Positions 3,483 through 44,466 of a DNA stretch of 44,466 bases are shown piece by piece (the first letter of the stretch is position 1; the number at the start of each line of letters is the position of its first letter). The notes under the pieces were generated by a model that did no database searches, had not been told where the DNA came from, and saw nothing but the letters and a program-made list of their open reading frames with translations. The position numbers were made by a program, and so were the translations under genes. The DNA comes from a virus, in the IMG/VR virus record IMGVR_UViG_3300020536_000001, positions 1 to 44,466 of that record; one strand, 5' to 3'.

Positions 3483-3631
3483 ATTGGCGTGAGTTCTTCG
3501 TTTTCTTAGCGAGGGGCGATATATTCCTCTACAAGGAGTATATGAAAACATCCGTTGAGGATGTCTTAACTTTGCTCAAGCATTTCCAGGAGGAAAGGCA
3601 ACGCAAAGCTAAACAAGACACCAATGGCTGA
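2838..3631 (+). CDS. Predicted frameshifted chaperone (GT-like): 2838..3329 joined in the -1 frame to 3329..3631
   Basis: The -1 frame has no stop from 3293 to 3631 and ends 8 nt into the tape-measure gene. This matches the arrangement known for long-tailed phages. Confidence 0.4.
3323..3329 (+). other. Candidate -1 slippery heptamer T_TTT_TTC
   Basis: Zero-frame codons are gat ttt ttc (..YDFFV..). It is the only X_XXY_YYZ heptamer I found in the part of the chaperone ORF where the -1 frame is open (3293..3631). Confidence 0.45.
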
Positions 3632-6557: not shown

Positions 6558-8338
6558 TGGCGAGTTTCACGGTAATACTTGACGGACAGACCTTGGCCAA
6601 CGAGCCAATGGGTTTGCAGGACACGGCCATATCCATCCAGCGGAACGAGGACTTGCCTGGCCTGTTCACAACGATGGTTTCGGACTTGGAGTTCTGGGGC
6701 GATGGCTATGAGATTCTTTATGCCTACTACCAGGCCAACGACTTATGCAAAGAGGTTTCCTGCCAAATCATTGAGGACTGCAACGATGGCTTGAACTTTC
6801 GTGGCTTGATTTACTTGAGCGATGTGGAGTTCAATTCATACAAGTGCATTGCGACTTGCTCGGTGGAGGACGATACCGTTCAGGGGAGATTGATTCGGAT
6901 GAAGGACTTGCTTGTTCCAATCAACTCGGTGAATGGGCAAACCGTAAATGGGCAAGGATTGAGCAACTGTGCATCCTATCAATTTGCTACCGGGACAACC
7001 TACGGCAATAGGTTTGCCTTCAAGATGTCGGAATTGTTTCAGTATGTAGTTAGCTACCTGACCGACAACACGACCATCTTCCAAAGCGACATTTTCACGA
7101 ATATCAATTACCGACCTCAATTCATTCAACTTAAATGTGTTTATGCCGGAGGAGCAGGGTTTCCCTTAGAAATGAAATGGATTGATGTTTATGGAAACAA
7201 TGTCACAAGGGTTTTTATTGGACCAGCGCTATTTGCCGTAACAGACAACGCCACCTATGCGAGGGCCGTTGCGACCGTGTTGAATCAACAAGTCTTTACA
7301 AATAGCGGAGGCAATAGCTACCAAGACATTGTGTTCCCTTATGCGGCAAGAGCAACGACTGATGGGGTTGACGATTTCGTTGAGGTCTATTTCTACCACC
7401 AAACAACCTTCACGGAAATCAATGTCCTTGCAGGAGCCAGCACGGTGACTGTTGTGTCAACAGTTGATGCTACCTACGGAGCAAAAAACCTATACACGAC
7501 CAACACCTCGCTGATAGAGCCATCCGTATCAATGCCGTCCATATCCTTCACTCAGCTCTTTATGGGGATGAACGCATTCTTTAATTTGAGCCTTTCGTTC
7601 ACGAGGGTTGGGACGCAGTTGTATCTAAGGGCCGACACTCAGCCTTATTTCTTCAGCAACGCTCAATCCGCATCCATTAGCGATGCGAAAGATGTGATGC
7701 TGAAGACCGATAACCCATTGGTATTCTCGGTGCTGAATTATAGCAATGCCACATTGAACAACGCATCTATCTACTACCAAGATGCAGGCTACGCTTCCAC
7801 TCAATGCGCAGAAAGCGATGCAGGAACAACGCCATATTTTCTTATCCCCAATGATTATTACAACGGCAGTATTGGTTCGCCTGCCCCAATAGGAGGTTTG
7901 TACTATGGCTTTTCGGTAAACCAAGAGAACAAGTGGATTTTGCTTGAAGAGAATACTGACCTTCTGACAACGCCGAAGACCGTGTTGAATATGGCTCATA
8001 CAGGCACCACGAGTTCCATCAACCAACAGAACGCCATTATTGCGGACCCCATTTCCTTTACCTATGCCGGTTCGTGCATCCATCCATTTGCGGCCAGAAA
8101 TTATTTGTTTCGTGCGCCATTGGGCCTCCGTTATGCTGGGTACTTTTTGAGTAATAACTTGCCAATCAAAATAGCAAAATCACTCTCGTTTGAATATCCC
8201 CTTGACCGAGCGCAATTCAATCAAATAAGCAACAATCCAACGAACTATATCGTTGTGAACGGCACAAGAGGATGGATTATGAGCGTGGAGCATAACCTCA
8301 AAACAGGAATGACAACCTTTGAACTTCTGACCGAATGA
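6557..8338 (+). CDS. Tail protein following the tape measure (distal tail / baseplate-like), 593 aa
   Basis: TAATG overlap with the tape-measure stop. The call is by synteny only. The ORF track begins at a TTG at 6551. Confidence 0.6.
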   Translation: MASFTVILDGQTLANEPMGLQDTAISIQRNEDLPGLFTTMVSDLEFWGDGYEILYAYYQANDLCKEVSCQIIEDCNDGLNFRGLIYLSDVEFNSYKCIATCSVEDDTVQGRLIRMKDLLVPINSVNGQTVNGQGLSNCASYQFATGTTYGNRFAFKMSELFQYVVSYLTDNTTIFQSDIFTNINYRPQFIQLKCVYAGGAGFPLEMKWIDVYGNNVTRVFIGPALFAVTDNATYARAVATVLNQQVFTNSGGNSYQDIVFPYAARATTDGVDDFVEVYFYHQTTFTEINVLAGASTVTVVSTVDATYGAKNLYTTNTSLIEPSVSMPSISFTQLFMGMNAFFNLSLSFTRVGTQLYLRADTQPYFFSNAQSASISDAKDVMLKTDNPLVFSVLNYSNATLNNASIYYQDAGYASTQCAESDAGTTPYFLIPNDYYNGSIGSPAPIGGLYYGFSVNQENKWILLEENTDLLTTPKTVLNMAHTGTTSSINQQNAIIADPISFTYAGSCIHPFAARNYLFRAPLGLRYAGYFLSNNLPIKIAKSLSFEYPLDRAQFNQISNNPTNYIVVNGTRGWIMSVEHNLKTGMTTFELLTE

Positions 8339-10068
8339 TTACACCGAATCAACCAATATCGTGCGTGCCAAGTACGGCAACGAATAACGCTCCTGCTAAC
8401 GCAGCAACTAACTTGTCTTATTATACGCCCAGCGCAAGCGTGACAAAGGATAATACCACGGGGTTTGTTAGAATAACATTCGCTGGCTCTGGAGCAAGAT
8501 TTTGTGCGGTTAATTACAATGTAAATCCAGCCACCACCTGCAAAAACGCTATTCTTAGAATTGAGATTTCCAATTTTACAAAAACAGGAGGAGATGTGCT
8601 ATACATCTATGGCTATAATGGCATAGAGATAGATGATAATGGAATATATCAAATACCAATATCCACAGCCACTTTTAATTTTGAATTAGCAGGAAGCACG
8701 ACACTTCAATTCACAATAAAAAGCGCCCAGGTATTTTGCGTATCCGAAAGCGAGGATTGTGATAATTGCAAGACGGGGGATTATCAGCAACCGATATTGA
8801 CGGAGTTCAATGGCTCTGGCTGGACATCTGAGTCACTCAGTTTCCAGGCTCCTGCGCTTATGTTCAAAAACCTCCTTTACAGCATTTGCGATGGAAACCC
8901 CGAATGGACATTAACCTCTGGATGGGGATCAATAGACACAACGCCTGTTTGTGGCGTTGATTTGAATTATTGCTACCCAAGTGCAGGAACGTACAATGGT
9001 TTTGTAAATGGTCTTTTTTCTTCTTCGCTGATCAATGGAAAAACATACAGAATTTCATATACATTAGAAGAGATAGGGGGAGAGTTTTGCGGCTTTGTTA
9101 ACACGCTTGCCGTGCTTAATCCTTCGGCGGCTTCTTTTACCGATGACGCTATTTGTCCAGGAGATTACGTTCATTACTTTACATACACCGGCACAAGCTA
9201 CCTAACGGGTACGAATCTAAACTTTAGCATTAGGACAAATGCGAATGGAAAAGTAAAGATGAGGATTAGCAATGTAAGGGTTGACGAACTCGGTGGATAT
9301 ACGGCTACTCTTCTTCCTTCCGATTTGATATGGTCTAATCCTGCTTTTGATTCTTTCTATAAAAGCATAAAGACCCAAGTTGACTCGGAGTCTTTTTATG
9401 GTGACACTTTTTTCTGCACTTTTCATTTTGTATCAAATAATCCAAACGCAGGATTCAATAAGAACGATTGCTTTAGGATAGTAATTACTCAAGACACTTA
9501 TGATGGGGGGAGTGATTGGTATTGCTTGAGCGAAGAGTACAAATGGATTACCGATCCGTGCAACACCATCCGAGTCTTGGCATCCCAAAATGTGACCGAC
9601 GCGAAGGGGGCTTGCGCTTTTGGATTCAACTATCCCTCCAGCACCGCATTACCAGCTGGCTTCTTTCATCGCACCAGAATCTATGGTGAGTTGAGGAATC
9701 CGCAATACGATGGCGAGGTTGTTTCGTATCAGGATAGCGCAGGCCGCAAGAGGGTCGTGTATGCGGAGAGTCGGGAGTTCGTGGAGTTGGTCGTGAACCT
9801 CTCGCCGAGGTATGTCCACAACTTTATGCGCCTCGCTTGCAGGCACGACATCTTCAACATGAACGACCTCATCATTCCTGCTGCCGATTACTTCACTCGC
9901 TCGGAGGCGTACTCTCCGACCTGGGTTCGGACACGGCTCGTTGCCCCTGCCTTCCTTGAGGTTGAAGTGAAGGAGCAGAACTTACGCAAAGACCCTTGTT
10001 GCGATGGTTTGCCCGTGAACCCCGAAAACTGCGAAACGACTTGTGAGCCTTGTCCTGAGATAGGATAA
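8335..10068 (+). CDS. Tail-tip / receptor-binding candidate, 577 aa
   Basis: ATGA overlap with the upstream gene. The first two thirds are visibly AT-rich and the last third is GC-rich. Cys-rich C-terminus. Confidence 0.55.
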   Translation: MITPNQPISCVPSTATNNAPANAATNLSYYTPSASVTKDNTTGFVRITFAGSGARFCAVNYNVNPATTCKNAILRIEISNFTKTGGDVLYIYGYNGIEIDDNGIYQIPISTATFNFELAGSTTLQFTIKSAQVFCVSESEDCDNCKTGDYQQPILTEFNGSGWTSESLSFQAPALMFKNLLYSICDGNPEWTLTSGWGSIDTTPVCGVDLNYCYPSAGTYNGFVNGLFSSSLINGKTYRISYTLEEIGGEFCGFVNTLAVLNPSAASFTDDAICPGDYVHYFTYTGTSYLTGTNLNFSIRTNANGKVKMRISNVRVDELGGYTATLLPSDLIWSNPAFDSFYKSIKTQVDSESFYGDTFFCTFHFVSNNPNAGFNKNDCFRIVITQDTYDGGSDWYCLSEEYKWITDPCNTIRVLASQNVTDAKGACAFGFNYPSSTALPAGFFHRTRIYGELRNPQYDGEVVSYQDSAGRKRVVYAESREFVELVVNLSPRYVHNFMRLACRHDIFNMNDLIIPAADYFTRSEAYSPTWVRTRLVAPAFLEVEVKEQNLRKDPCCDGLPVNPENCETTCEPCPEIG

Positions 10069-10084
10069 TTGCGTGGCGATTCGT

Positions 10085-10092
10085 TATATTTG
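10085..10092 (+). promoter_or_regulatory. TAnnTTTG box (TATATTTG) upstream of the 192-aa structural gene
   Basis: Sits in the 94-bp intergenic gap; no clean TTTG at -33. Confidence 0.3.
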
Positions 10093-10162
10093 CAATTACA
10101 TCGTGCGTTGTGGCCTGTCTGCCAATAAATGACGAGATTGAAATCCTTTAATTTTTAACAAA

Positions 10163-10741
10163 ATGGCTTATTTAGAATACGGCTGTACTGCTTTGCCGAA
10201 TCACGAGCTTGTGCTTTGTGGTGCTTACAACAGGGGCGGTATCTCTGCGATTGGTATTCTTGAGGAGGACGCATTTGGCACCGGGGCTACTTTTGCAACC
10301 GCTGCCGATTGGAGCAATGGTGCGAAATACACCACCGCTATCAACGCTGGAGACCTCAAAATTATCAAGAATGTTCGTGGAACGGTACCCGATGCATCTC
10401 CCGTAGATGTTGACAATCCTGTTGGATGTGGCCCAACCTCGCTCTTGGCTGGGTTTGACTTTACCGCTACCTGGATGGATGCCAACACAACCGATGGAAG
10501 CATTGACTTTTACAACGCCCTCAACAAGCGTGTAACGGGCTTGATTCTGTACCTGTGTGGCTCTAACGAGGTGATGGTGATCACTCAACCCGTGAACTAT
10601 GTGTGCCTGCCGGTTAATGTCCCTGCTTCCAACAAGGAGCTTCAGATGTTCAACTGCACAGCCCGTGCTTCGCTCGGCCCAGACCAACTCCCACAGAAAT
10701 ACGTTGCGCCTTCAAACGCAGACGCTATCTTCGGGGTTTAA
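10163..10741 (+). CDS. Structural protein, 192 aa; possible major tail protein
   Basis: A stand-alone unit with its own upstream gap and a strong downstream terminator, which suggests high expression. No tube protein is recognisable elsewhere. Confidence 0.4.
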   Translation: MAYLEYGCTALPNHELVLCGAYNRGGISAIGILEEDAFGTGATFATAADWSNGAKYTTAINAGDLKIIKNVRGTVPDASPVDVDNPVGCGPTSLLAGFDFTATWMDANTTDGSIDFYNALNKRVTGLILYLCGSNEVMVITQPVNYVCLPVNVPASNKELQMFNCTARASLGPDQLPQKYVAPSNADAIFGV

Positions 10742-10764
10742 GTTTCGGTTTGGTTTTTTTGAAT

Positions 10765-10792
10765 CCTCGGCCTTTGGTCGGGGATTTTTTTT
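10765..10792 (+). terminator. Rho-independent terminator
   Basis: Stem CCTCGGCC / GGTCGGGG (8 bp with 2 G-U pairs), loop TTT, then ATTTTTTTT. Confidence 0.7.
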
Positions 10793-10799
10793 ATCTTTG
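10792..10799 (+). promoter_or_regulatory. TAnnTTTG box (TATCTTTG) 5 nt before the first glycosyltransferase ATG
   Basis: Directly follows the terminator T-tract, which implies a very short or absent leader. Confidence 0.3.
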
Positions 10800-10804
10800 C
10801 ACAG

Positions 10805-11752
10805 ATGAGTGCAAAAACAACAGGGATAGTGCTTATGGCTTTTGGAAAGTCAGCCTATCACGAAATGGCCTACAATTTTGCGTTGTCGGTCAAACATTTT
10901 GACAAAGACCTTCCGATTCAACTTATTTGCGACAAAACCGATGTCCTCATAAGCCATAAGTATTGGGTATTTGATATTAAGACCATTATTGACCAAGATG
11001 ATTTGTATCATAACGGGGCGTTCAGTCCTGGCAGAGCCAAGACCCGAATGGACAAGTACCTGGCTTTTGACAACAACTTATATTTTGACATTGATGGAGT
11101 TTGCCTAAAGTCTTTGAAGCCTCTCGTTGATCATCTGCATAGCCTTCCAAAGGAGGGCTTTTTTTATTCCCAGGTAGCATCTTGGGAAGACCCGAAGGGA
11201 GGCACACCAAAGGCAAACCTAAAAAGGGATGGGGCAGATTTTCCTCCTATGCAATGGGCCACGCTTGATACCATTTGGGAATACCATGAACTTGACGATG
11301 ATGCCGAGGTAACGGCCATAAACAGTTCCTTTATGTTCCTTCGCAAGGGAGAGAAGCTCACGGAGTTCTTTGCTCAGGTAAGGGACAACATTGACAACGG
11401 CATCCCTATTTCAAGGCTTAAAATGGCTTGGGGAAATACTTATCCTGACGAACTCGCCTTTAATATTGCTTGCGCCCAATACAAGATTGACCCATTCCCT
11501 GGATGCAACCCTGTTTATTTCCAATACCGAAATGCATTGTCAGTCAAGACTATACCTTGGATGATGGACAATTATTATGTTTTAGGCTTGTTTGGTGGCG
11601 CAGGATTCACTCACAATTCAGCCTGGGAGCATTCTTGCGCCCTTCTTGGCCAATACCATAGGAATATGGGCCTCACCCACGAATACAAGTGGCATAATTT
11701 GGTAAAACAAAAACACGCAGGACAACAAAGACTATTGATACGATGGAATTAA
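10805..11752 (+). CDS. Nucleotide-sugar transferase-like protein (GT8-like), 315 aa
   Basis: GIVLMAFGKSAYHEMAYNFALSVKHF N-terminus and a DxD-like YFDIDGV motif. Confidence 0.5.
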   Translation: MSAKTTGIVLMAFGKSAYHEMAYNFALSVKHFDKDLPIQLICDKTDVLISHKYWVFDIKTIIDQDDLYHNGAFSPGRAKTRMDKYLAFDNNLYFDIDGVCLKSLKPLVDHLHSLPKEGFFYSQVASWEDPKGGTPKANLKRDGADFPPMQWATLDTIWEYHELDDDAEVTAINSSFMFLRKGEKLTEFFAQVRDNIDNGIPISRLKMAWGNTYPDELAFNIACAQYKIDPFPGCNPVYFQYRNALSVKTIPWMMDNYYVLGLFGGAGFTHNSAWEHSCALLGQYHRNMGLTHEYKWHNLVKQKHAGQQRLLIRWN

Positions 11753-12390
11753 GCGGATTCATCTCGGTCATTACGACCTGCAAAGGCCGTATGCATCATT
11801 TGGAAGAGGCATTACCTACTTGGCTTGCCCAAGAGGGGGGCAATTACGAGATTATCGTGGTGGATTATGGAGACCCCGATAAGAGCGCCGATTATGTGGA
11901 GGAGTTGAACGACCCACGAGTTCGTGCGGTAAGGCACGAGGCCGAAGGCTTTAACCTTAGCCGCGCAAGAAACATCGGTGCCTTGGCCGCTTCCGAGAAG
12001 GCCGACACCTTTGTTTTTATGGATGCCGATGCCTTGATGACCAACTCTGCATTCCTTAACTACCACAAAATCAAGGTTATGGATGGTGGGACATTCGTTA
12101 CGGGATGGAATTATGGCGATGGTACGGGATGTTGTATGGTTTGGAAAGAGTTGTTTTACCGGGCCAAGGGTTACAACGAGATAGTGGATGGATGGGGCAT
12201 TGACGATGTTGACTTTTATTGGAGGGTTGAGCGTCTTGGGTTTGAGCAAAGAAGTTTTCACAACGGCCTGCAAACCATTAAGCACGATGACGAGGATAGG
12301 GTCAGGTTCTATGCGAACAAGAACATTTTGGCAACCAATCAGAGCAATTACGATAGGTCTAAAAGAGCATTTGTGAGCTGCATCCCATGA
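11743..12390 (+). CDS. Family 2 glycosyltransferase, 215 aa
   Basis: ISVITTCKGR...YEIIVVDYGDPD, FMDADA (DxD), and GYNEIVDGWGIDDVDFYWR (GT2 / galactosyltransferase-C-like). Confidence 0.75.
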   Translation: MELSGFISVITTCKGRMHHLEEALPTWLAQEGGNYEIIVVDYGDPDKSADYVEELNDPRVRAVRHEAEGFNLSRARNIGALAASEKADTFVFMDADALMTNSAFLNYHKIKVMDGGTFVTGWNYGDGTGCCMVWKELFYRAKGYNEIVDGWGIDDVDFYWRVERLGFEQRSFHNGLQTIKHDDEDRVRFYANKNILATNQSNYDRSKRAFVSCIP

Positions 12391-13238
12391 ACATTAAAGT
12401 AAGAGCGATATGTAATTGGACCGATTCTGCGTCTTTGAACCGCAGGATTATGGAGCAGTCCTTGTGGAGCGAGGCCGATGGTATCACCTTCGTTGATGAC
12501 GATTCTTACGATTGGCTCGTGGTATTCAACGACAAAAGAGGAGCCGAGCCTCGTGTCCCCAAGGAACGAGTCATAGGCTTCATCCAAGAGCCACCAGACC
12601 ACGATTTCTTTGACCGGGGCATTGGGTCCTATTGCTCCGTTGTTTACACTTGTACGGAGCCACAAGCCTATGGAATTGAGGGCAACTTGGTTGGCTTCCC
12701 TTGCGGTATGTTTTACCATATGGATGGGCCTTTGTCGGATTATCTTGACGGCTTTGAGAAGCGAAGGGTTGCAAGTATGGTGACGAGCAACATCGCCCAC
12801 GGATTTTACCTCTTTAGATATAAGATAGCCAAGGAACTTGCCTCTTGTGGATGGGTTGATGTTTATGGCCGTGGCCTGAATGTCAGGGGATGCAAGGGCG
12901 AACTCGGCAACAAGGCCGATGGGTTGATTCCCTACAAGTTCTCGGTATGTATGGAGAACGGCATTTGGGACGATTACATCTCCGACAAGATTATTGACGC
13001 TGTTCTATGTAGAACAATCCCTATTTATGTGGGAGCAAGGAACATCCACGAGCATATCCCTTTTGCCATTCGCCTTGAATCTTATGGCAACGCATCCTTC
13101 GCAAAGGCCGAGATTGAACGCATCGTGTCTTCGGTTGATTACGATTTCATTCTGCTCCAAATGAATGCTTGGGTTCGTAAATATGCCAACGAATACACGA
13201 TTTACTCAAAGATTAAACAAACCATTCTAAACCAATAA
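12387..13238 (+). CDS. GT10 (fucosyltransferase)-like glycosyltransferase, 283 aa
   Basis: YKFSVCMENGIWDDYISDKIIDAVLCRTIPIYVG matches the remembered GT10 signature (KF..afEN...dYvTEK..da......P.y.G). Confidence 0.6.
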   Translation: MNIKVRAICNWTDSASLNRRIMEQSLWSEADGITFVDDDSYDWLVVFNDKRGAEPRVPKERVIGFIQEPPDHDFFDRGIGSYCSVVYTCTEPQAYGIEGNLVGFPCGMFYHMDGPLSDYLDGFEKRRVASMVTSNIAHGFYLFRYKIAKELASCGWVDVYGRGLNVRGCKGELGNKADGLIPYKFSVCMENGIWDDYISDKIIDAVLCRTIPIYVGARNIHEHIPFAIRLESYGNASFAKAEIERIVSSVDYDFILLQMNAWVRKYANEYTIYSKIKQTILNQ

Positions 13239-13241
13239 GTT

Positions 13242-13760
13242 ATGCACGGAGAACAAGTAAATTTCATTAATGTCGTTAAGGCTGGATTTCCAGAAATGTT
13301 CAAGGGGAAGAAAGTTTTGGATGTTGGAAGCCAAGACATAAACGGTAGCAACTTGCAATTCTTTGAGGAATGCGAGTATTTGGGGATGGACATTGGTGAG
13401 GGTAAGAATGTTGACATTGTTGCCTATATCCACGAATGGATTGAAGAAACGGACGAGCGTTTTGATGTGGTGATTTCGGGGGAGATGCTTGAACACGATA
13501 AGTTCTGGAAGAAGAGCATTAAGGCGATGTATAAGGCTTGCAAGCCTGGTGGCTTAATCGTTATTACTTGTGCTGCTCCTGGCAGACCAGAACACGGCAC
13601 CGCCAAGTCGGAGGGATGGAACTCTCCATTCACAACCGATTACTATCGCAACATATCGGACAAGGATATGGAATTGGCCTTAAAGGGATGTGAGTTTGAG
13701 GAGAAAGAAATATCCATCCAAGGTTGGGATATGTATTTCTGGGGCGTTAAGGCGAAGTAA
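13242..13760 (+). CDS. Class I SAM-dependent methyltransferase, 172 aa
   Basis: KKVLDVGSQDINGS (motif I), FDVVISGEMLEHD, KPGGLIVITCA. Confidence 0.8.
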   Translation: MHGEQVNFINVVKAGFPEMFKGKKVLDVGSQDINGSNLQFFEECEYLGMDIGEGKNVDIVAYIHEWIEETDERFDVVISGEMLEHDKFWKKSIKAMYKACKPGGLIVITCAAPGRPEHGTAKSEGWNSPFTTDYYRNISDKDMELALKGCEFEEKEISIQGWDMYFWGVKAK

Positions 13761-14512
13761 TGTATATCGGCATAACGACCTTCAAGGAGCGTTTCCGTTC
13801 CCACCTAATCCCCTTGATTGAGGATTTGAGTGGAATGGATGTGATTGTTGCGGTCAACGCTTCAAGCAAGACGGGCCTTGACAACGAATACCGAAGGGAT
13901 ATGCTTCGGTTTCTTGCCGATCACGACAATGTAAGCCCCATCTTCTACCAGGAGATGCGAGGCTTGGCCAAGATGTGGAACGATTTGGTTGTCCACTCTC
14001 CGACCTCTCATATTTTGATTCTGAATGACGATTTAAGGGTGAGCAACAAAAAGGCCCTTATGGACAGGGTGAGTCAAATAACGACCACCCAAGCCAATAT
14101 GTTCGTGCTGAATGGTTCTTGGTCGCACTTCGTGACCTCCAGGAAGATGATGCAGGAGTTGAATTGGTTTGACGAAAGGCTTTTGGGATTCGGGGAGGAG
14201 GATGGCGATATGATGTACCGGCACATTGAAACCTATGGGTTTATGCCTCCATCGTTTGAATGCCCCCATATCCATAATGTCTCAAGCGATGTGAGGGACA
14301 ATGGGGTAAAGCCAGGGGTGGCCAAGTACAGTCTGTTCAACCGTGCCTTCGCTGGGTTTTGCGAACACGACATCCCCAATCTGCCGAAGAAATACCGGCC
14401 AGAGCGAAACGGAATCCAGGCAATGTTCAATGTGCCTATGAGGAATCAGCTTGAGAACAAGCAACAATACCCTTACGAATCGTTCTTTGATGAGTTTAAG
14501 GCATACTTGTAA
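13760..14512 (+). CDS. Glycosyltransferase (GT2-like), 250 aa
   Basis: ILILNDDLRV (DxD region) and LLGFGEEDGDMMYR. TAATG overlap with the methyltransferase gene. Confidence 0.55.
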   Translation: MYIGITTFKERFRSHLIPLIEDLSGMDVIVAVNASSKTGLDNEYRRDMLRFLADHDNVSPIFYQEMRGLAKMWNDLVVHSPTSHILILNDDLRVSNKKALMDRVSQITTTQANMFVLNGSWSHFVTSRKMMQELNWFDERLLGFGEEDGDMMYRHIETYGFMPPSFECPHIHNVSSDVRDNGVKPGVAKYSLFNRAFAGFCEHDIPNLPKKYRPERNGIQAMFNVPMRNQLENKQQYPYESFFDEFKAYL

Positions 14513-14527
14513 TAGCGAATTATGCCT

Positions 14528-14535
14528 TAATTTTG
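14528..14535 (+). promoter_or_regulatory. TAnnTTTG box (TAATTTTG) upstream of the portal gene
   Basis: Lies in the 76-bp gap between the glycosylation island and the portal gene. Confidence 0.3.
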
Positions 14536-14588
14536 AGCATAAAACCATTCCAAATGTGCAAATGCAGAGGCGGTAAAAAGCGATAGCC

Positions 14589-16454
14589 ATGACAACAGAG
14601 GAAATTCTCCCACTGTTAGACAAAATCATAACGGAGTACAAAAAGTACGAGGTTAAGAAAAAGTCTGACAAGTTCTATATCCCCGATTTCTACCCGACCT
14701 ATCAGTCTTGCGTGGAGATGGAGATGAGGCTTCGGATCCACTCCGATTACGATGCCTTCCCCGAAAAGCTGTTCCGGGAGAAAGCCCCCAACGAACTCCC
14801 TCACGAGTTCAATTATCGGAAGAACATCTACAAGCCCATAACGGTCCCTTATTTCCATAAGGCCGTAAACATCGCTGGGCGAGTGTGGAACCGGCAGAAT
14901 TACGAGGTTCGCTTTGAGGACGCTTCCCAAGAGCGGTATTTCAACGAGGATTATCCTCGCTTTGGTTCGTTGGAGAACTATTTCCAGCAGATCGTGACCT
15001 TTATGACCTTGACCGACCCCAATGCGGTCTTGGCCGTTATGCCTACCGACCTCCAATACTTTGAGGACGGCACCTTCAACGACACCGTTGAAACCACTCC
15101 CGTGGCCCATTGCTTTCACTCCAAGCGAGTGTGGGGATGGAAGGATGGCGAGTACGCCATCCTAAAGGCCGATTACGGTTCCGAGGTTGAGCATGGCCGT
15201 ACCAAGACGGATGATGGTTTGGTTTTCTACATCTTTGACAGGAACGAGATTCAGATAGCCAAACAAATCGGCAAGAAGGGCGATTATGAGTTTGAGATTG
15301 GCCTTTACTATCGCCACAACCTTGGCTATTTGCCTTGCACGAGGCTCGGAGGTATTTCGGTGCAGGAGCATGGCGATTACTATTTTCAATCCTTCTACAC
15401 CCCTGCCATCCCGGCTTTGGACCAAGCCGTGTGCGATTTCAGCACCTTGCAGATGTCCAAGTTCAGCCACGCTTTCTTGCAGAAGTGGGAATATGTGGAT
15501 GAGTGCGATAAGTGTAATGGATCGGGGTACATTGAGGAGGCTTTAGGCTTTGAGGAGAAGGTTGCCATCGCTTGCTCTAATTGCGCTGGCTCTGGCACGA
15601 AGCGGATGTTCGGGCCGATGTCGGTGTACCAGGTGCAGACCCCAAACCGCTTCACCACCGAGGTTGAGACCAAGGTGAACATCCCTCCTGCCGGGTTCAT
15701 TGAGTTGGATCCGCAAATCCTTGACTTCTTAAACAAGCAAGTCATTACCAATATTCAAATGGCCTTTGAGTTGTTGTCCATTGATGTAATGAACAACGAG
15801 AAGATTTCGGGCCGTGAGACCGCCACAGGTAAGGCCATTGACCGTGAGGAGTTGTATTCCTTTCTGCTCCGCTTTGCCAACACCATCTTTGCCGATTATG
15901 AGTTCGCTATGGACACGATTGGGAGGATGCGTTATGGCGATGCTTGGTCTATGCCTGCGGTTCGTTATCCGCAGAACTTTGAGATGCGCACCGATGCGGA
16001 GTTGACCGCAGAGATTAAGTTGGCCCCGACCTTTTCCAAGGCGATGTTGGCCCAGCAATACCTTGACACTCGCTTCCCCATCCAAGAGGAGAAGAGTGCG
16101 ATAATGAAGTTGAGCGTCCAGGTTGACCCCTTCTTCAATCTTGAAACGAGGGATGTCTTGGCGTTGGTTGCTTCGGGCATTGCCCCCAAGTGGAAGGCGA
16201 TAATGCACTTTGAGTTGGAGTCCTTGATTAAGGAGGCTTTGTCGGAGAACGAGGAGTTCTTGACGCTGACCTTGGCCGAGCAGAAGGCGGTATTGATAGA
16301 TATGGCTAAGAAGTTGGTGCCAGAGGATGAGGGTTCGTCCAGGATGACTCCCCAAAGCGTTATGAACGCACGGACGGCTGTTCCTGCCGCACCGGTAGAG
16401 GAAGAAGAAGAGGAAGAAGACGAAGAGGAAGAGGAGGAGGAGGAAGAATCGTAA
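14589..16454 (+). CDS. Portal protein, 621 aa, with an internal CxxCxGxG x2 zinc-finger-like insert and a poly-Glu tail
   Basis: Size, position directly before a MuF-like gene, scaffold and capsid, and acidic C-terminus EEEEEEEDEEEEEEEEES. The call is by synteny. Confidence 0.65.
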   Translation: MTTEEILPLLDKIITEYKKYEVKKKSDKFYIPDFYPTYQSCVEMEMRLRIHSDYDAFPEKLFREKAPNELPHEFNYRKNIYKPITVPYFHKAVNIAGRVWNRQNYEVRFEDASQERYFNEDYPRFGSLENYFQQIVTFMTLTDPNAVLAVMPTDLQYFEDGTFNDTVETTPVAHCFHSKRVWGWKDGEYAILKADYGSEVEHGRTKTDDGLVFYIFDRNEIQIAKQIGKKGDYEFEIGLYYRHNLGYLPCTRLGGISVQEHGDYYFQSFYTPAIPALDQAVCDFSTLQMSKFSHAFLQKWEYVDECDKCNGSGYIEEALGFEEKVAIACSNCAGSGTKRMFGPMSVYQVQTPNRFTTEVETKVNIPPAGFIELDPQILDFLNKQVITNIQMAFELLSIDVMNNEKISGRETATGKAIDREELYSFLLRFANTIFADYEFAMDTIGRMRYGDAWSMPAVRYPQNFEMRTDAELTAEIKLAPTFSKAMLAQQYLDTRFPIQEEKSAIMKLSVQVDPFFNLETRDVLALVASGIAPKWKAIMHFELESLIKEALSENEEFLTLTLAEQKAVLIDMAKKLVPEDEGSSRMTPQSVMNARTAVPAAPVEEEEEEEDEEEEEEEEES

Positions 16455-16455
16455 T

Positions 16456-17262
16456 ATGACTTTAGAACAAATTCAGTCCAAGAAGCAGAAGAACTTGGAC
16501 ACGATTGGCGAGGAGTTTGGCAAGCAGGTGGAGGAATCGCAGAACGAGGTTCTGCCCCTTATCATTGCCCTGCTCGCTTTATTCAGTTACGACAAGAACG
16601 GCAATATATCTTTTGACACGGCCAATTATGCTCGTGTCAATGCCTTTATGGATGGAGTTGATGGGGCCGTTGCCGGGAGCAAGTATTTTGATGCCTTGGT
16701 CTTCTTGATGGACAAGGTGGATGCCCAGGCCGAACTTACCAGAGAGATGTATCGCAAGATGGACCTTAACCCCGATGCGGTTTCCGGCATTGATTACGAG
16801 GCCCAAGCGACCTCTATGCTTGAGGACTTGACCAATTTTAAGTCGGGATTTTCAACGGCCTTGAGAAACTTCATCCTTGCGTCTATTGCCTCTGGCTCTG
16901 ACCGAACCGCTTTGGAGGAGGGCATTGCCCAAATCGTGAAAGGGGGTGCTGGAAAAAAGGGGTTGCTCTTTGACACGGCCACGCTTACGGCTGACACGAT
17001 GTTTGCGGTGATTGACCGCTCCTTCACCTTTGCGATGGGCGAGGCTTTGGGCATTAAGAAATACTTGTACGCAGGAGGCTTAATAAACGATTCTCGGCCA
17101 TTTTGTGTGGCGAGGGATGGTAAGGTATTCACGAAGGAAGAAGTGCGCTCCTGGGGCAAATTAGGCGATTGGAAGGGCAAGATTGTCGGCACCGATGAAT
17201 CCACCATTTTTATCTACTTGGGAGGATATCGTTGCAGGCATTGGCTTGTCCCTCAAGTTTAG
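16456..17262 (+). CDS. Head morphogenesis protein (SPP1 gp7 / Mu F-like), 268 aa
   Basis: C-terminal RPFCVARDGKVFTKEE...YLGGYRCRHWLVP resembles the MuF family signature; it follows the portal gene. Confidence 0.7.
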   Translation: MTLEQIQSKKQKNLDTIGEEFGKQVEESQNEVLPLIIALLALFSYDKNGNISFDTANYARVNAFMDGVDGAVAGSKYFDALVFLMDKVDAQAELTREMYRKMDLNPDAVSGIDYEAQATSMLEDLTNFKSGFSTALRNFILASIASGSDRTALEEGIAQIVKGGAGKKGLLFDTATLTADTMFAVIDRSFTFAMGEALGIKKYLYAGGLINDSRPFCVARDGKVFTKEEVRSWGKLGDWKGKIVGTDESTIFIYLGGYRCRHWLVPQV

Positions 17263-17321
17263 TTTGCCCATTATTGTTTATATTTGCGGTACAAACCTTT
17301 CACCCTTAAACCCATTCATTT

Positions 17322-17615
17322 ATGATTGAAGTAAAAAGAGGCAGGCACATCCGTGCCATCAAGCCTGACGGTGAGGTCGTTTTCATTAGCGATGCGACCG
17401 CCCGAAACAGTAAGTTCTTGCAGAAGTACAACATCCGCATTGACGATGAGGAGTACTTAAACCCAAGCAAGCCTCAGAGCATCGTTATTGAAGAGGCTCC
17501 AAAGCGCAGGCCGATTGCAAGAAGGCGAACTGAAGAGGTCATCGTGTCTCAATCAGCCGATAGCATCGTTGAGCAGTCTCCAAACATTGACCTTGAACCA
17601 TCTGAAATCCAATAA
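17322..17615 (+). CDS. Hypothetical protein, 97 aa
   Basis: ORF in the head module. A TATATTTG box at 17279..17286 lies upstream. Confidence 0.6.
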   Translation: MIEVKRGRHIRAIKPDGEVVFISDATARNSKFLQKYNIRIDDEEYLNPSKPQSIVIEEAPKRRPIARRRTEEVIVSQSADSIVEQSPNIDLEPSEIQ

Positions 17616-17626
17616 ACCCATCAATT

Positions 17627-18445
17627 ATGTCTATTGACTCCAAAGAAATGTCTAAGTGGCTCTTTGACCAAGAGAAAGAGTTTGAAAGCCTTGACCAATT
17701 CAAGGAAGAGCTTGCCAAGAAATATGTCGCTCGTGAGGTGGCCGTTGATGACGAGGACATCCGCAACAAGGTAACGGGCAAGACGCTCGGAAGCCTTGAG
17801 ACCAAGTTTAAGCGTTCCTTCAACCTCACCGAGGAGGATGTCAAGGGCAAGAAGTTGTCGGATTTGTTTGAGGTTGCCCAGCAGCGCATTCAAGCTCAAG
17901 TGGATGAGCTGAAAGCTCAGGCTCAAAACACGGGCAAGGACGATGAAGCCTACAAGGCGCAGCTTGCCGAACTGAAAAGGCAGAAGTCTGAGTACGAAAC
18001 CTTGGCAGGGGAGTTGACGCAGAAGTTGGAGCAGAAGGAGTTGGAATCGCAGAAAGCGATTGACAATTACATTGTGAATCAAGAGGTTATGAAGATTAAG
18101 TCAAGCCTCGCCTGGAGCGATTCTGTCAATACCTATGCGAAAAAAGGCTTTGACATAGAATTGAATGAAAAGTATATCTTTGCATTGTCGGATGGGAAGT
18201 TGATGGTGACGGACAAGCAGGGCAACCAAATCAAAAACGAGAAGGGGACCGGCTATCTGACACCAGAGGAGTTGGTGAAGAGCGAAGCGGAGAAAGCTCA
18301 AATGCTCAAAAAGGCAGGCGAGGCAGGAGGAAGAGAGTCGGCCGCATCTGTTCGCACCACTTCATCCCAAAGACAAGAGACCGCTATTGAGCGGCACTTG
18401 CACCCAAGAGCCGTAAAACATAGACAAGAATTGAACGCACGATGA
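17627..18445 (+). CDS. Scaffolding protein, 272 aa
   Basis: K/E/Q-rich sequence with coiled-coil character, immediately upstream of the capsid gene. Confidence 0.6.
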   Translation: MSIDSKEMSKWLFDQEKEFESLDQFKEELAKKYVAREVAVDDEDIRNKVTGKTLGSLETKFKRSFNLTEEDVKGKKLSDLFEVAQQRIQAQVDELKAQAQNTGKDDEAYKAQLAELKRQKSEYETLAGELTQKLEQKELESQKAIDNYIVNQEVMKIKSSLAWSDSVNTYAKKGFDIELNEKYIFALSDGKLMVTDKQGNQIKNEKGTGYLTPEELVKSEAEKAQMLKKAGEAGGRESAASVRTTSSQRQETAIERHLHPRAVKHRQELNAR

Positions 18446-18528
18446 TGTGTCTTGGGAGACAATAAATCCCATAGTGCCTGGCTTGGCAATCAATAGCCTC
18501 AATCAAACTTTGTTTTACTTCTAACAAA

Positions 18529-19587
18529 ATGTCTTACGCTTTTTCATCCTTTGTATCGTGTCCCGATATTCAAGGTCGTTTGGATGATGGCTATTTCAAT
18601 GCCGACCCAACGATGTTCCCCGGACACATCAACACTCTTCGGGCGATCACCTCTCCGATGAACGAATCTGGTATCATTCAGAACCAGATTGACACCAAGA
18701 ACGGCCATTACCGCCAGGTGGAAGTTGTCTATCAGCCTCGTATGAACGATGTAGGTACCACAACCTCCGCTGAGTTGAATTGTGCCGCTGGCCCCACCTA
18801 TGGTGAGACTTCAACCGTTTACAACATCAATCCTGCGGTCGGGGCTTCTCGCCGTTGGTCTGTTGGGTTGGACGATTTGGCTCCTCGTTGTGAGAATGAC
18901 GAGAACTATATCGCTCGGCAGTTGGCGATGAATTTGCAGGCTCTCAAGCGTTTTATGAACGAAGAGGCCGTGAATTACATCTCCACCAATTTCGGTAAGT
19001 TCGCCTATGGTGCAGGCTCTACTGTTGACGGAACTCGTAGCTTGATGACCACCAAGACCAAAAACACCACCAATGGTTGGTTCTTGGATGATTATCTCTC
19101 CGATGTGACCTATCAGTATCAGCTTGCTGAAGGTTGGGATCGCCCCATCATCATCGGTGGTGAGCTTTCTCACAAGTACATGACCGCATTGAAGTCGCAT
19201 TGCTGTGCCACGGTGAATGTTGACCTTCAGGCTATGATGAACTCGGACGCTCAGTCCTACTTCTTCTTTGAGCCAAAGGCCGACAGCACTTTCGGTGCCG
19301 GTGAGTTCGCTTTCCTCGCCCCAGGCGGTGTTCAGCTGATTCGCTACAATGCCTTCCGTGGTGCCAATGGCATCCGTGTAATTGATGACCAATCCATCAA
19401 GAAGGGTACGATTTCCGACCCCGAAACCGGCTTGGAATTTGATTACTACGCTCAGTTGGATTGCAACACCTGGAAGTTCTTCCTGGGTCTTTCCTACAAG
19501 TATGTGGATCTGCCTGCTGACCTCTTCTTCAACGATGACGATTTGGCTGGTGTGAATTACATCTTCAACGGTAAGGTGTCCAACTAA
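18529..19587 (+). CDS. Major capsid protein, 352 aa
   Basis: Position after the scaffold, own upstream gap, strong terminator downstream, and size typical of HK97-fold capsids. Confidence 0.7.
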   Translation: MSYAFSSFVSCPDIQGRLDDGYFNADPTMFPGHINTLRAITSPMNESGIIQNQIDTKNGHYRQVEVVYQPRMNDVGTTTSAELNCAAGPTYGETSTVYNINPAVGASRRWSVGLDDLAPRCENDENYIARQLAMNLQALKRFMNEEAVNYISTNFGKFAYGAGSTVDGTRSLMTTKTKNTTNGWFLDDYLSDVTYQYQLAEGWDRPIIIGGELSHKYMTALKSHCCATVNVDLQAMMNSDAQSYFFFEPKADSTFGAGEFAFLAPGGVQLIRYNAFRGANGIRVIDDQSIKKGTISDPETGLEFDYYAQLDCNTWKFFLGLSYKYVDLPADLFFNDDDLAGVNYIFNGKVSN

Positions 19588-19609
19588 TCCTTCGGGATTA
19601 TGCTCAAGG

Positions 19610-19640
19610 AAGGGGGTGCGAAAGCATCCCCTTTTTTGTT
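19610..19640 (+). terminator. Rho-independent terminator after the capsid gene
   Basis: Stem AAGGGGGTGC / GCATCCCCTT (10 bp, one G-U), GAAA loop; the T-tract begins within the 3' arm (TTTTTTGTT, 19632..19640). Confidence 0.85.
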
Positions 19641-19641
19641 T

Positions 19642-19649
19642 TAACTTTG
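19642..19649 (+). promoter_or_regulatory. TAnnTTTG box (TAACTTTG) just after the capsid terminator
   Basis: Overlaps the TTG start used in the ORF track (19647), which favours the ATG at 19677. Confidence 0.3.
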
Positions 19650-19676
19650 TCCAATGAGTATCTTAATCTTGCCAAA

Positions 19677-20693
19677 ATGAGTAATTGCTGGGATAATGTC
19701 ATCGGGATTCGTGGTTTGTGTGATGCAAGCACGCCTCCGATTAGCGGTTTGTATATCAATGACTTGACAGGCATTAGCCTTGCAGACCTTGATTCGGGCG
19801 TGAATGAGGAGGACAAGACCGCCTATACCTTGATTCAGCGCAAGATTGACCAAGCGGCCAATATGCTGAAAGCGGAGTCCTTGGCCTATTTGCAGAGTCG
19901 CTGGAATTACACCACATCGTCCTGGACGGGCGATTTAGGCTTTTATGCCGAATCGGTCTTGCCTTTGTCTGCTTCTGCCGTATGGCGAGGCATTGGGATG
20001 CGTTATCGCCAGGTTGATTACATCGGAGTCACCATAAGCTCTGTAAGCCTTCTTCTCCCCGTGAGTGGCACTATACCTGTCCAGGTCGTTGATTTGCGTA
20101 CAGGAGTCACCTTAGACACCTTCAACGTCACGGCCGTGGCCAACTCGGTGTCTCGCCTCGTGGTGAACAAAACCTATCAGTCCAATGGCCAAATGTTGAA
20201 CTTGGCCGTCCTTTACGATGCGACCTCGGTGGCCTCGTTTCAGACGAGTCTTTACCCGACTTATGGATGCAGCAGTTGCGGTCGGAGCGGAGGTGCTTAC
20301 GGATGGAACGACAATATGCTTGAGAGGGCGATAGAGATTTCAACGGCAGGGCAGCGTATTGAGAGCAACATTGCAGGAGGAAGTTTCACGGGTGGCTTGA
20401 GTGTTCAATACCAGGTCACTTGCAGCTTTGAGTCGCTTTTGTGCGCTCATGTCACGCAACTCGGCTATCCTTTGCTTTACAAGACGGGGATGTTGCTTTT
20501 GAAGGAGATGGAGTTCTCCAAGCGTTTGAATGGCGTGATTGTGTTTAACAGGGACATGAACCAAGAGTTGTCCAACTATTACCAAGCCCAATACGACCAA
20601 TATATGCAGCGATACTTTGAGCAAGCGAACTTGCCAGAGGGCGGTTGTTTTGCGTGCAGGCAGAGGGTAAGGCAGGCTTCTCGCATACCGTAA
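19677..20693 (+). CDS. Hypothetical virion protein, 338 aa
   Basis: ATG MSNCWDNVIGIRG...; sits in the head-to-tail joining region by synteny. Confidence 0.6.
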   Translation: MSNCWDNVIGIRGLCDASTPPISGLYINDLTGISLADLDSGVNEEDKTAYTLIQRKIDQAANMLKAESLAYLQSRWNYTTSSWTGDLGFYAESVLPLSASAVWRGIGMRYRQVDYIGVTISSVSLLLPVSGTIPVQVVDLRTGVTLDTFNVTAVANSVSRLVVNKTYQSNGQMLNLAVLYDATSVASFQTSLYPTYGCSSCGRSGGAYGWNDNMLERAIEISTAGQRIESNIAGGSFTGGLSVQYQVTCSFESLLCAHVTQLGYPLLYKTGMLLLKEMEFSKRLNGVIVFNRDMNQELSNYYQAQYDQYMQRYFEQANLPEGGCFACRQRVRQASRIP

Positions 20694-22348: not shown

Positions 22349-22864
22349 ATGGCATTAGCACGGCTCACATCGTTTTCGTTCGGGGAGAAGTTATTGACTT
22401 TGACCTATGCCAATTCGCAGACCTATTATGTCTCCTATGCCCATTTGGTCGCTTTTGAGCTTGACCCCCGAACCACAGACCCAAAGGTTTACATCTATAC
22501 GCACGGAGAGACGAGTGAAACGCTCTTTGTGAGCAGTAGCGATCTTGTGGCCCTGGGGAGTAGCATTAGTGCATTCTTGGCCTCGTTGCAAGGCGTGATG
22601 GTGAATCAGCTCTTTTGGTTTGAGATATGGGCGAATTTTCTCGCTCGTGCCAAGGCCAATTCTGCGTTGACCCCCGAACTCGCAAGCACTTGCGGTCGGT
22701 ATTTCCGATACGAATTGAATCCTCCCTTGGTCCCTACGGCCACGGAGGATTATGCAGACTTCTGGTACTTCAATCAGCGGTGCGACAACGATAGTGCCAC
22801 CGTGAAGGAGGCATCGGCCTATAATTGTTTGCTCACGAGGTTTTCAGCCTTAAATCCGAATTAA
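22349..22864 (+). CDS. Hypothetical protein, 171 aa; its N-terminal ~80 aa are paralogous to 25343..25597
   Basis: MALARLTSFSFGEKLLTLTYANSQTYYVSY...SSSDLVALGSSISAFLASL compared with MALPTLTARTFGSTQLQLTYADGRQYFLNY...TNGDLVALGTTAAAFLSTL. Confidence 0.65.
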   Translation: MALARLTSFSFGEKLLTLTYANSQTYYVSYAHLVAFELDPRTTDPKVYIYTHGETSETLFVSSSDLVALGSSISAFLASLQGVMVNQLFWFEIWANFLARAKANSALTPELASTCGRYFRYELNPPLVPTATEDYADFWYFNQRCDNDSATVKEASAYNCLLTRFSALNPN

Positions 22865-22866
22865 CG

Positions 22867-24141: not shown

Positions 24142-24144
24142 GAT

Positions 24145-30190: not shown

Positions 30191-30207
30191 AGGCTCAAAA
30201 TTAGTGG

Positions 30208-44367: not shown

Positions 44368-44466
44368 TTAGACTCTTTTTGGTGTGCAAAATGCGACTCA
44401 AAAAAAAATGAGCATAAGATTTAATATAAGTGTTTATATTCTATATAGATGTCTATATGTTATATA
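44368..44466. repeat. Terminal direct repeat, copy 2 (identical to 1..99)
   Basis: Exact 99/99 match to the window start. Confidence 0.95.

Follow-up and report, generated by a model that had tools for sequence, protein, structure and literature searches.

A variable glycosyltransferase and methyltransferase cassette linked to a tail-tube-fold gene in uncultured tailed phages: candidate machinery for virion glycosylation

Introduction

The viral sequence IMGVR_UViG_3300020536_000001 (44,466 nucleotides (nt), analyzed here at its full length and called the window) carries a cassette of five genes, g1 to g5, between the gene for a 192-amino-acid (aa) protein, p192, and the portal gene (Table 1). 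A first-pass annotation made from the sequence alone had described these genes as a glycosylation and methylation island inserted into the virion structural module, the product of which would be placed either on virion proteins or on a host glycan. The question raised by this locus is what the five enzymes build and on what they build it.

We propose that the cassette is a late-expressed glycan-building unit of the virion module in a large, uncultured clade of tailed phages whose hosts are probably Bacteroidota, a description to which we give an even chance of being right. Our confidence is similarly balanced that its enzymes act in the cytoplasm on virion proteins, with p192 as the prime candidate acceptor and a variable, methyl-capped glycan as the product. 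As to the two readings of the first-pass annotation, the evidence leans to virion glycosylation, short of proof. This reading is favored because the cassette lies on the structural strand between tube-fold and portal genes in a genome where no integrase was found among the scanned reading frames, because the adjacency of p192 and g1 is clade-wide and the cassette type is independent of the tail-tip type, and because two unrelated phages have analogous glycosyltransferase and methyltransferase cassettes within their structural modules. By analogy, a precedent with the same composition in mycobacteriophages also argues for it.

Enzymes of the cassette

Families in the window were mapped by PHROG and Pfam scans, in which all open reading frames (ORFs) of at least 200 aa were scanned. 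The five genes on the + strand stand exactly where the first-pass annotation had placed them, and their junctions of −10, −4 (ATGA), +3 and −1 (TAATG) nt indicate tight coupling. No hydrophobic or membrane segment was found in g1 to g5 (maximum KD19 1.38), and an NCBIfam scan returned nothing above any cut-off. As had been annotated, the window contains no sugar-nucleotide synthesis or flippase gene; some relatives hold DegT-like or acetyltransferase genes in the same slot.

The product of g1 had been described as similar to glycosyltransferase (GT) family 8. This description stood at the level of fold and DxD motif and not as membership of a sequence profile. The protein matched no Pfam (Glyco_transf_8, PF01501, included), PHROG or NCBIfam family, with only phrog_1903 appearing at 0.0025. 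Its AlphaFold model has a predicted local distance difference test (pLDDT) score of 91 and a predicted template modeling (pTM) score of 0.90. When this model was compared with the PDB by Foldseek, it matched WbbM, UGGT, glycogenin, XXYLT1, LgtC and GlyE with E values of 2e-8 to 1e-6 and template modeling (TM) scores of 0.45–0.54, and a g1 profile run against the PDB gave weak matches to glycogenin and the Skp1 glycosyltransferase (E 0.004–0.04). In BFVD, giant-virus GT8-like proteins were matched at the fold level only. The GT8 enzymes glycogenin, LgtC, GlyE and XXYLT1 and the GT24 enzyme UGGT have the GT-A fold and the DxD motif in common with g1, and several of them have proteins or protein-bound glycans as their substrates, in the cytoplasm or the endoplasmic reticulum. 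However, their identity to g1 is about 11% and there is no Glyco_transf_8 match; g1 represents a separate family, tied to this phage clade in every context examined. The model suggests that g1 is a GT-A enzyme, predicted to be retaining, that is GT8-like in fold only. Since D95-x-D97 and P214-D215-E216 are invariant across 36 family members at 27–51% identity (the DxD also in a 25-member set), a working enzyme is more probable for g1 than a relic. A full HMMER search gave 1670 family representatives at E ≤ 1e-3 and 337 at E ≤ 1e-30; an apparent tiny family of 27 clusters was an artefact of a word-indexed search.

The earlier assignments of g2 to GT2, of g3 as GT10-like and of g4 as a class I S-adenosylmethionine (SAM)-dependent methyltransferase were supported by Pfam matches above the cut-offs. 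The g2 protein matched PF00535 at 4.6e-15 (56.4 bits against a curated cut-off of 23.3) and Glyco_transf_7C at 2.5e-6, and its D94-A-D96 (DxD) motif is invariant in 9 homologs. The g3 protein matched PF00852 at 3.8e-10 (40.2 bits, cut-off 23.9), and in the PDB its profile retrieved the H. pylori α1,3-fucosyltransferase (FucT) at 7e-9 over the nucleotide-binding motif, with FUT9 and plant FucTA lower. The consensus of α1,3-FucTs is F-x-[LV]-x-F-E-N ... Y-x-T-E-K. In the corresponding g3 motif, YKFSVCMEN..YISDKIIDA..PIYVG, the FSVCMEN...YISDK stretch keeps the E-N (E190 is invariant in 10 homologs) and has S-D-K at the position of T-E-K. The Pfam scan of g3 gave the C-terminal domain only, the profile of the GT10 N-terminal acceptor domain not being matched. 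The g4 protein, which matched PF13489 at 3e-10 (40.5 bits, cut-off 27) and phrog_32762 at 2.7e-44 and has the glycine-rich SAM motif I (KVLDVGSQD, residues 24–32), is a probable sugar O-methyltransferase.

The GT2-like nature of g5 was supported by its relatives and not by its own Pfam score. PF10111 matched at 2.6e-5 with 24.3 bits, below the cut-off of 27.3, and of its 820 homologs many, at 40–70% identity, are named as GT2 enzymes and contain PF10111 or PF00535. The protein carries NDD and GFGEEDGD motifs, the similarity of its family to that of g2 by hhalign was marginal (E 0.021), and a PDB sequence search with g5 gave nothing useful. A g5 homolog of 49% identity was seen on L077 (JGI 3300051399), a 212-kilobase (kb) contig resembling a jumbo phage; the cluster in which it lies has five or more glycosyltransferase-like genes and adjoins DNA polymerase B, ThyX, RecA and DnaB.

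The slot between p192 and the portal gene

The first-pass annotation had suggested looking for the same cassette in related contigs, and a cassette with g1 was found between p192 and the portal gene in 51 of 51 loci. These loci comprise 42 from a portal-based scan of IMG/VR (76 related loci with 70–99% portal identity, of which 42 hold both p192 and the portal), 5 in metagenome-assembled genomes (MAGs) from a g1-profile scan of 185,579 species genomes, and 4 contigs of distant g1-family representatives (5 were sampled and 4 were informative), and they reach down to 25% portal identity. Every one of the 51 has the order p192, g1, zero to seven other genes, portal. A cassette of 2.5–5.5 kb separates p192 from the portal in all 42 IMG/VR loci, and the MAG loci run from a p192-like through a g1-like gene to the portal in 5 of 5, at 25–38% identity. 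A p192 homolog lies 5′ of g1 in 4 of 4 distant contigs (E 2e-58 to 9e-11), immediately so in 3, with a portal homolog downstream in all 4; g1 is the sole gene between p192 and the portal, bar one tiny ORF, in 2 of them.

The gene content of the slot varies around g1. Among the 42 IMG/VR loci, g1 is present in 42, g3 in 39, g2 in 33 and g4 with g5 in 7, and about 18 further families account for the other cassette genes. The recruited families include FkbM-type methyltransferases, a Methyltransf_24/CmcI-like methyltransferase, further GT2 enzymes and a Nucleotid_trans (GT77-like) protein, along with a short DegT-like aminotransferase and hexapeptide and PglD-like acetyltransferases. Sixteen architectures were called, a few of which differ by ORF calling only (about 13–16). 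At least one methyltransferase is found in 38 of the 42 cassettes, and in 33 it is the gene nearest to the portal. Over all 51 loci, the minimal cassettes (L082, L092 and L093) consist of g1 alone or g1 with a tiny ORF. The cassettes of L008, L013 and L019 hold a short (208 aa) DegT-like aminotransferase together with hexapeptide or PglD-like acetyltransferases; with these genes the relatives probably synthesize an unusual acetamido sugar and do not depend on host pools alone.

For g1 and g3, identity to the window proteins follows portal identity (rho 0.93 and 0.91), as it does for the head-morphogenesis protein p268 (0.94), and no such tracking was seen for g2 (0.24) or for the tail-tip proteins p577 (0.10) and p595 (0.33); these values rest on related, non-independent sequences. 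The slot is filled in every locus and its core enzymes diverge with the portal, at odds with the annotation of an inserted island. A compositionally foreign island was also rejected: the GC content of g1 to g5, 0.44–0.48, is unremarkable against about 0.48 for the genome. Nucleotide homology of the window to L001, L017, L070 and L012 ends at 13224, just before the g3 stop codon, and resumes at 14511–14516, at or just after the g5 stop codon, suggesting that g4 and g5 were exchanged as one unit at gene boundaries. Exchange as modules was confined to g2 and to the pair of g4 and g5. These comparisons indicate vertical inheritance of g1 and g3 as part of the virion module, with g1 always staying with the tube-fold gene, and a recombination hotspot at the cassette periphery, which draws mainly glycan-related enzymes and nearly always a methyltransferase. 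In the group with at least 94% portal identity, the cassette type is independent of the tail-tip type: L009 has the same cassette as the window and a p595 of 30% identity, and L008 has p595 and p577 at 96–97% and a different cassette.

This modularity brings up the alternative that g1, and perhaps g3, is an ancestral virion-directed enzyme to which g2, g4, g5 and the variable genes were added as "morons" whose targets are unrelated or whose effect is close to neutral. It would account for the cassettes with g1 only, for the swapping of g2 and the portal-proximal genes at gene boundaries without portal tracking, and for the g5 homolog in the multi-glycosyltransferase cluster by the replication genes of the jumbo-phage-like contig. 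However, the slot is unlike a random moron slot because most of the assignable recruited families are glycan-related (GT2, GT77-like, FkbM/CmcI-type methyltransferases, aminotransferase and acetyltransferases). The retention of a methyltransferase in nearly all cassettes, mostly in the last position, and the translational coupling of the genes in the window with g1 and g3 also speak against it, and we consider this alternative quite unlikely.

Locus L084 (QQVM01000017.1, 4412–21290 of a 353,633-base-pair (bp) Bacteroidetes MAG contig) is a distant relative that holds tape measure, tail-tip, tube-like, g1-like and portal genes in the order seen in the window, its g1-like domain being the N-terminal part of a 766-aa ORF. 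An integrated prophage may be present here, which would give a hint as to the host.

Transcription signals

The strong terminator annotated in front of the cassette is real and is the top-scoring site within 6000–18000, with a 12-bp stem containing 6 G-C pairs and a 3-nt loop. Its coordinates had to be shifted, the stem-loop with its T-run starting at 10761 and the stem-loop ending at 10787, compared with 10765–10792 in the annotation. The TAnnTTTG box annotated next to the first ATG, which had made the block look like an autonomous unit, was found as well (Table 1). The count of this pattern over the whole window showed a mild enrichment (39 against 28.5 ± 5.7 expected), and the enrichment was strong within 80 nt 5′ of same-strand start codons, with 11 boxes where 1.65 were expected (P = 4e-7). 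Divergent relatives keep the arrangement of hairpin, T-run and box despite different stem sequences, with 3–5 nt between the box and the ATG of g1, which argues that this arrangement is functional. At 258–265, 10792–10799 and 30196–30203 (− strand), the boxes have a start codon (at 273, at 10805 and at 30190 on the − strand, respectively) only 5–7 nt downstream, suggesting leaderless or near-leaderless transcripts at these starts.

In promoters of Bacteroidota, TAnnTTTG serves as the −7 element. Its enrichment 5′ of start codons supports a Bacteroidota host, which this enrichment and the one relative in a Bacteroidetes MAG contig make plausible. No terminator was found between g5 and the portal gene. 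We propose that the terminator after p192 would reduce read-through from the tube gene, that the cassette's own TAnnTTTG promoter would set the expression of the enzymes, and that transcription likely continues into the portal gene. Inside the g1 coding sequence, a terminator-like hairpin with a T-run was noticed at 11141–11159 (8 pairs, 5 of them G-C); it may be a chance occurrence or an internal attenuator.

The upstream neighbor p192

No sequence family was found for p192 by Pfam, PHROG or PDB sequence searches, and tblastn was empty. Its AlphaFold model (pLDDT 79) was compared with the PDB by Foldseek, and the significant and near-significant matches were almost all to tail-tube or Hcp-type proteins, including Sf11 (4.6e-4), T1, GTA, PVC/AFP, monocin, R4C and SPP1, with modest TM scores of 0.35–0.43 on which the tube-fold call rests. 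The protein is 88–99% conserved in the near group, where the tail-tip genes drop to 27%. Its own TAnnTTTG box at 10085, the strong terminator that follows it and this high conservation point to a major structural protein, and the model suggests that p192 is probably the major tail tube protein.

Four cysteines of p192 (C8, C19, C89 and C132) occur without exception in its 27 homologs, the most distant of which have about 27% identity, and a D-x-N-[VTA]-[TSN] motif is conserved at 106–110. These features suggest a metal site or disulfides, which would be unusual for a tube-fold protein. Candidate acceptor hydroxyls of p192 are those of Y6, S28, S79, T101 and T166, with N108 as its conserved amide.

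The target of the cassette

In the pathway that we favor, g1, a soluble GT8-like enzyme, would add the first sugar to a virion protein, with p192, encoded directly upstream, as the prime candidate. The product of g3, probably using GDP-fucose or a related GDP-sugar, would lengthen the glycan together with g2 and g5 from host sugar-nucleotide pools, and g4 would O-methylate it, probably as a cap at the non-reducing end. Whole-gene swaps of the portal-proximal part would then vary the type of glycan between genomes while the rest of the virion stays conserved. We put forward the acceptor, the sugars, the sequence in which the enzymes act and the capping by methylation as proposals. More tentatively, g1 may found a new glycosyltransferase family whose ancestral, near-obligatory job is to glycosylate the phage's own tail-tube-fold protein, the glycan cassette having accreted around it; this conjecture could well be wrong, and we doubt it somewhat more than we believe it. 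If it is true, the hypervariable methyl-capped cassette would be a viral counterpart of O-antigen serotype diversity, on the virion, and virion glycosylation would be ancient and widespread in phages of Gram-negative (Bacteroidota) hosts and no peculiarity of actinobacteriophages.

Several points weigh against glycosylation of p192 or another virion protein. The identity of the acceptor rests on gene context, in which adjacency is circumstantial, and in the cassettes with g1 only, g1 adjoins the portal as much as p192. The modest TM scores behind the tube-fold call and the non-independence of the sequences behind the rho values have been mentioned above. The acceptors of mycobacteriophages have a Ser/Thr-rich C-terminal tail; such a tail was looked for on p192 and is not there, the C-terminus being a conserved AP.GIF motif. 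N108-x-S/T was also rejected as an N-glycosylation sequon, with S/T at +2 in only 21 of 27 homologs and no NGT-type enzyme present. The structural neighbors of g1 mix enzymes of lipid-linked glycans (WbbM, LgtC) with protein-directed ones, and peripheral O-antigen transferases are likewise free of membrane segments. We infer the late timing of expression from gene position only. Finally, PDB sequence searches with p352 and p348 gave nothing useful, and the major capsid protein was not recognized; candidate capsid proteins are encoded at 18529–19587 and 19647–20693.

The main rival is that the cassette modifies a glycan of the host envelope. Its soluble transferases would act on lipid-linked precursors of lipopolysaccharide (LPS), capsule or a general O-glycan at the cytoplasmic face, and the altered glycan, exported by host machinery, would change the cell surface and could, for example, mask receptors, stop progeny from re-adsorbing to debris or exclude competitors. 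That the top structural neighbors of g1 include the O-antigen and lipooligosaccharide enzymes WbbM and LgtC is consistent with such a role, as are the weak resemblance, far under the cut-offs, of g2 to exopolysaccharide and colanic-acid transferases and the naming of hundreds of g5 homologs as "glycosyltransferase involved in cell wall biosynthesis". The relatives also hold DegT-like and PglD-like enzymes typical of surface-glycan loci in a mix-and-match architecture like that of O-antigen loci, and a cytoplasmic phage transferase such as TarP can do without a flippase of its own. However, no integrase was found among the scanned ORFs, which makes lysogenic conversion unlikely for the genome of the window, and the cassette stands with the virion genes and not in the replication module on the minus strand. 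The co-divergence of g1 with the portal and its constant position on the p192 side of the slot in the 51 loci also weigh against envelope modification. Receptor masking should track the hypervariable tail-tip genes, and the cassette type is independent of them. In addition, no initiating phosphoglycosyl transferase, polymerase, ligase or Gtr-type membrane protein was found with the cassette. We consider a host-envelope target unlikely; if it is nevertheless the true one, the cassette would be an unusual surface-remodeling unit linked to the virion module of a seemingly non-temperate phage.

The enzymes could also hypermodify DNA, the transferases glycosylating modified bases of the phage genome against restriction and the methyltransferase modifying the sugar or the base. 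Decoration of DNA with diverse glycans by phage glycosyltransferases has been described (reference cited in PMC12619734), and the g5 homolog on the 212-kb contig lies beside DNA polymerase B and ThyX. Against this, no thymidylate-synthase-like gene or dCMP/dUMP hydroxymethylase was found among the scanned ORFs of at least 200 aa in the window, and the cassette is on the structural strand far from the replication module at 27.7–41 kb. The strict linkage to p192 would have no rationale. The GT8-like, GT2 and GT10 enzymes also differ from the classic DNA glucosyltransferase families of T4. We regard DNA as a highly improbable target, and virion glycosylation remains our preferred reading.

Comparison with known systems

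Homologs of g4 flanked by glycosyltransferases were found by tblastn in S-CBS4, phiPsal1, Streptomyces phage Zuko and the uncultured podovirus ctKR88. The glycosyltransferase and methyltransferase cassette lies between the portal and capsid genes in Synechococcus phage S-CBS4 and between the capsid and the neck/tube genes in Pontimonas phage phiPsal1. As in the window, the methyltransferase in these two unrelated siphophages is homologous to g4 (about 40% identity over 98–99% of g4), flanked by glycosyltransferases and situated in the structural module. Unlike in the window, the glycosyltransferases have no clear homology to g2 or g5 (E 0.02 or worse), and no homolog of g1 or p192 was seen. 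With only the methyltransferase homologous, a mobile g4 and g5 module shared with S-CBS4 or phiPsal1 was ruled out. A literature search found nothing tying S-CBS4 to glycosyltransferases, no further study of phiPsal1 and no functional data.

Virion O-glycosylation in the mycobacteriophages Che8, Corndog/Cluster O and Myrna (Freeman et al. 2023) is described in PMC11600133, PMC11256854 and PMC12619734. In Cluster O, an O-methyltransferase and three tandem glycosyltransferases modify capsid and tail tube proteins (PMC11600133, PMC12619734), and the mycobacteriophage F1 genes are placed near the 3′ end of the genome (PMC11256854). The window cassette resembles these systems in its tandem glycosyltransferases and O-methyltransferase, which are cytoplasmic and come without a flippase. 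The reported targets are capsid and tail tube subunits, and the window cassette, a candidate for the same function, abuts a tube-fold gene. On the other hand, the enzymes have no detectable homology, tblastn of g3 and g4 against 50,697 phage records returning no Mycobacterium phage. The hosts of mycobacteriophages are actinobacterial, whereas that of the window is probably a Gram-negative member of Bacteroidota, and the window cassette lies within the structural module, unlike the F1 genes. A clade-wide core enzyme with a hypervariable periphery also sets the window cassette apart. To our knowledge, experimental proof of virion glycosylation by phage-encoded enzymes comes from mycobacteriophages only, and Freeman et al. 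in 2023 reportedly saw little evidence of it in non-mycobacteriophages.

Chlorovirus PBCV-1 has its own capsid glycosylation machinery, for example A064R with two glycosyltransferase domains and a methyltransferase domain. Like the proposed system, it employs a cytoplasmic multi-transferase pathway, sugar O-methylation and host sugar-nucleotides, and its major virion protein bears fucose-containing, methyl-capped glycans. Unlike the phage of the window, PBCV-1 is a eukaryotic giant virus with atypical N-linked glycans, and g1 resembles giant-virus GT8-like proteins in fold only. The serotype-converting systems GtrABC and Oac are lysogenic-conversion genes of temperate phages, Gtr and Oac being membrane proteins, and the prophage-encoded TarP is a cytoplasmic GT-A enzyme that acts on wall teichoic acid. 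All of these are phage-encoded glycan-altering enzymes, as are those of the cassette. The window differs in that no integrase was found among the scanned ORFs, g1 to g5 have no membrane segments, and the cassette is in the virion block and linked to p192.

The enzyme classes and the concept of virion glycosylation were already known. New aspects are the phylum to which the host probably belongs, a GT-A family without a name that is linked to a tube-fold gene throughout a very large clade of uncultured phages, the GT10-like nature of a core enzyme and the O-antigen-like modular diversity of the cassette. The locus is a candidate for phage virion glycosylation outside actinobacteriophages, in a clade that is abundant in metagenomes, and it offers a defined candidate enzyme–acceptor pair in g1 and the 192-aa tube-fold protein. 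The approximately 13–16 natural cassette variants predict different glycans on one virion scaffold. If true, this would bear on the dealings of phages with glycan-foraging hosts, particles, grazers and defense systems that sense structural proteins, and would add an unnamed GT-A family to enzyme catalogues.

Other features of the genome

A 99-bp direct terminal repeat at 1–99 and 44368–44466 indicates that the phage genome in the window is complete, with about 44.4 kb (about 44.37 kb), and either circularly closed or terminally redundant. The window matches JGI contig Ga0335016_0000347. Megablast of 6000–20000 against INPHARED gave no match, and the best tblastn matches of the portal, to Polaribacter and Pseudanabaena phages, have 21–24% identity only; these results suggest that there is no close cultured relative. 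The structural strand (+) holds the cassette between tail and head genes, and the replication module is separate, on the minus strand. The annotation of a portal gene that brackets the cassette was corroborated by a PHROG match (Table 1).

Table 1 Features of the window and their coordinates
Feature	Position	Strand	Remarks
Large terminase	637–2010		
Tape measure	3624–6557		
p595	6551–8338		hypervariable tail-tip protein, 595 aa
p577	8335–10068		hypervariable tail-tip protein, 577 aa
Promoter-like TAnnTTTG box 5′ of p192	10085–10092	+	pattern match, 70 nt before ATG at 10163; one of the 11 boxes counted 5′ of same-strand starts
p192	10163–10741	+	192 aa
Intrinsic terminator after p192	10761–10795	+	stem-loop 10761–10787, then T-run
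TAnnTTTG box, cassette promoter	10792–10799	+	TATCTTTG; 5 nt before ATG of g1
Five-gene cassette g1–g5	10805–14512	+	
g1	10805–11752	+	315 aa; GT8-like retaining GT-A glycosyltransferase by fold, family unnamed
g2	11743–12390	+	215 aa; GT2 glycosyltransferase
g3	12387–13238	+	283 aa; GT10-like (fucosyltransferase-like) glycosyltransferase
g4	13242–13760	+	172 aa; class I SAM-dependent methyltransferase
g5	13760–14512	+	250 aa; GT2-like GT-A glycosyltransferase
TAnnTTTG box	14528–14535	+	TAATTTTG; 53 nt before portal ATG
Portal protein	14589–16454	+	downstream limit of slot; phrog_7376, 7.8e-16
Head-morphogenesis gene (p268) and unassigned head genes	3′ of portal		
Two phrog_5939 tail proteins	22825–24141 and 24145–25308		1e-47 and 2e-31
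Endolysin	25880–26503		
Replication module	27.7–41 kb	−	exonuclease, ParB-like nuclease, 700-aa DNA methyltransferase, DnaB, replication initiators

The gene order over 637–25308 is unusual, with terminase, tape measure, tail tip and tube-fold protein before the portal and head genes and more tail proteins (22825–25308) after the head genes. Residues 304–338 of the portal form a CxxC...CxxC zinc-ribbon-like insert (DnaJ_CXXCXGXG at 4.5e-4, below the cut-off), and its C-terminus is a run of about 17 acidic residues, EEEEEEEDEEEEEEEEES. The identity of p595 and p577 ranges from 25 to 97% between genomes with 95–99% identical portals, which marks the tail tip as hypervariable, and p577 ends in a Cys-rich C-terminal tail, DPCCDGLPVNPENCETTCEPCPEIG. 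The two phrog_5939 paralogues are adjacent and have similar C-termini, ...RLTDTQLQALTT and ...RLTNAQLQTLTTP. Residues 1–695 of the 700-aa DNA methyltransferase (32095–34197, − strand) align only to positions 208–494 of phrog_116, and its N- and C-terminal parts separately match shorter families of methyltransferases, which suggests a large inserted region.

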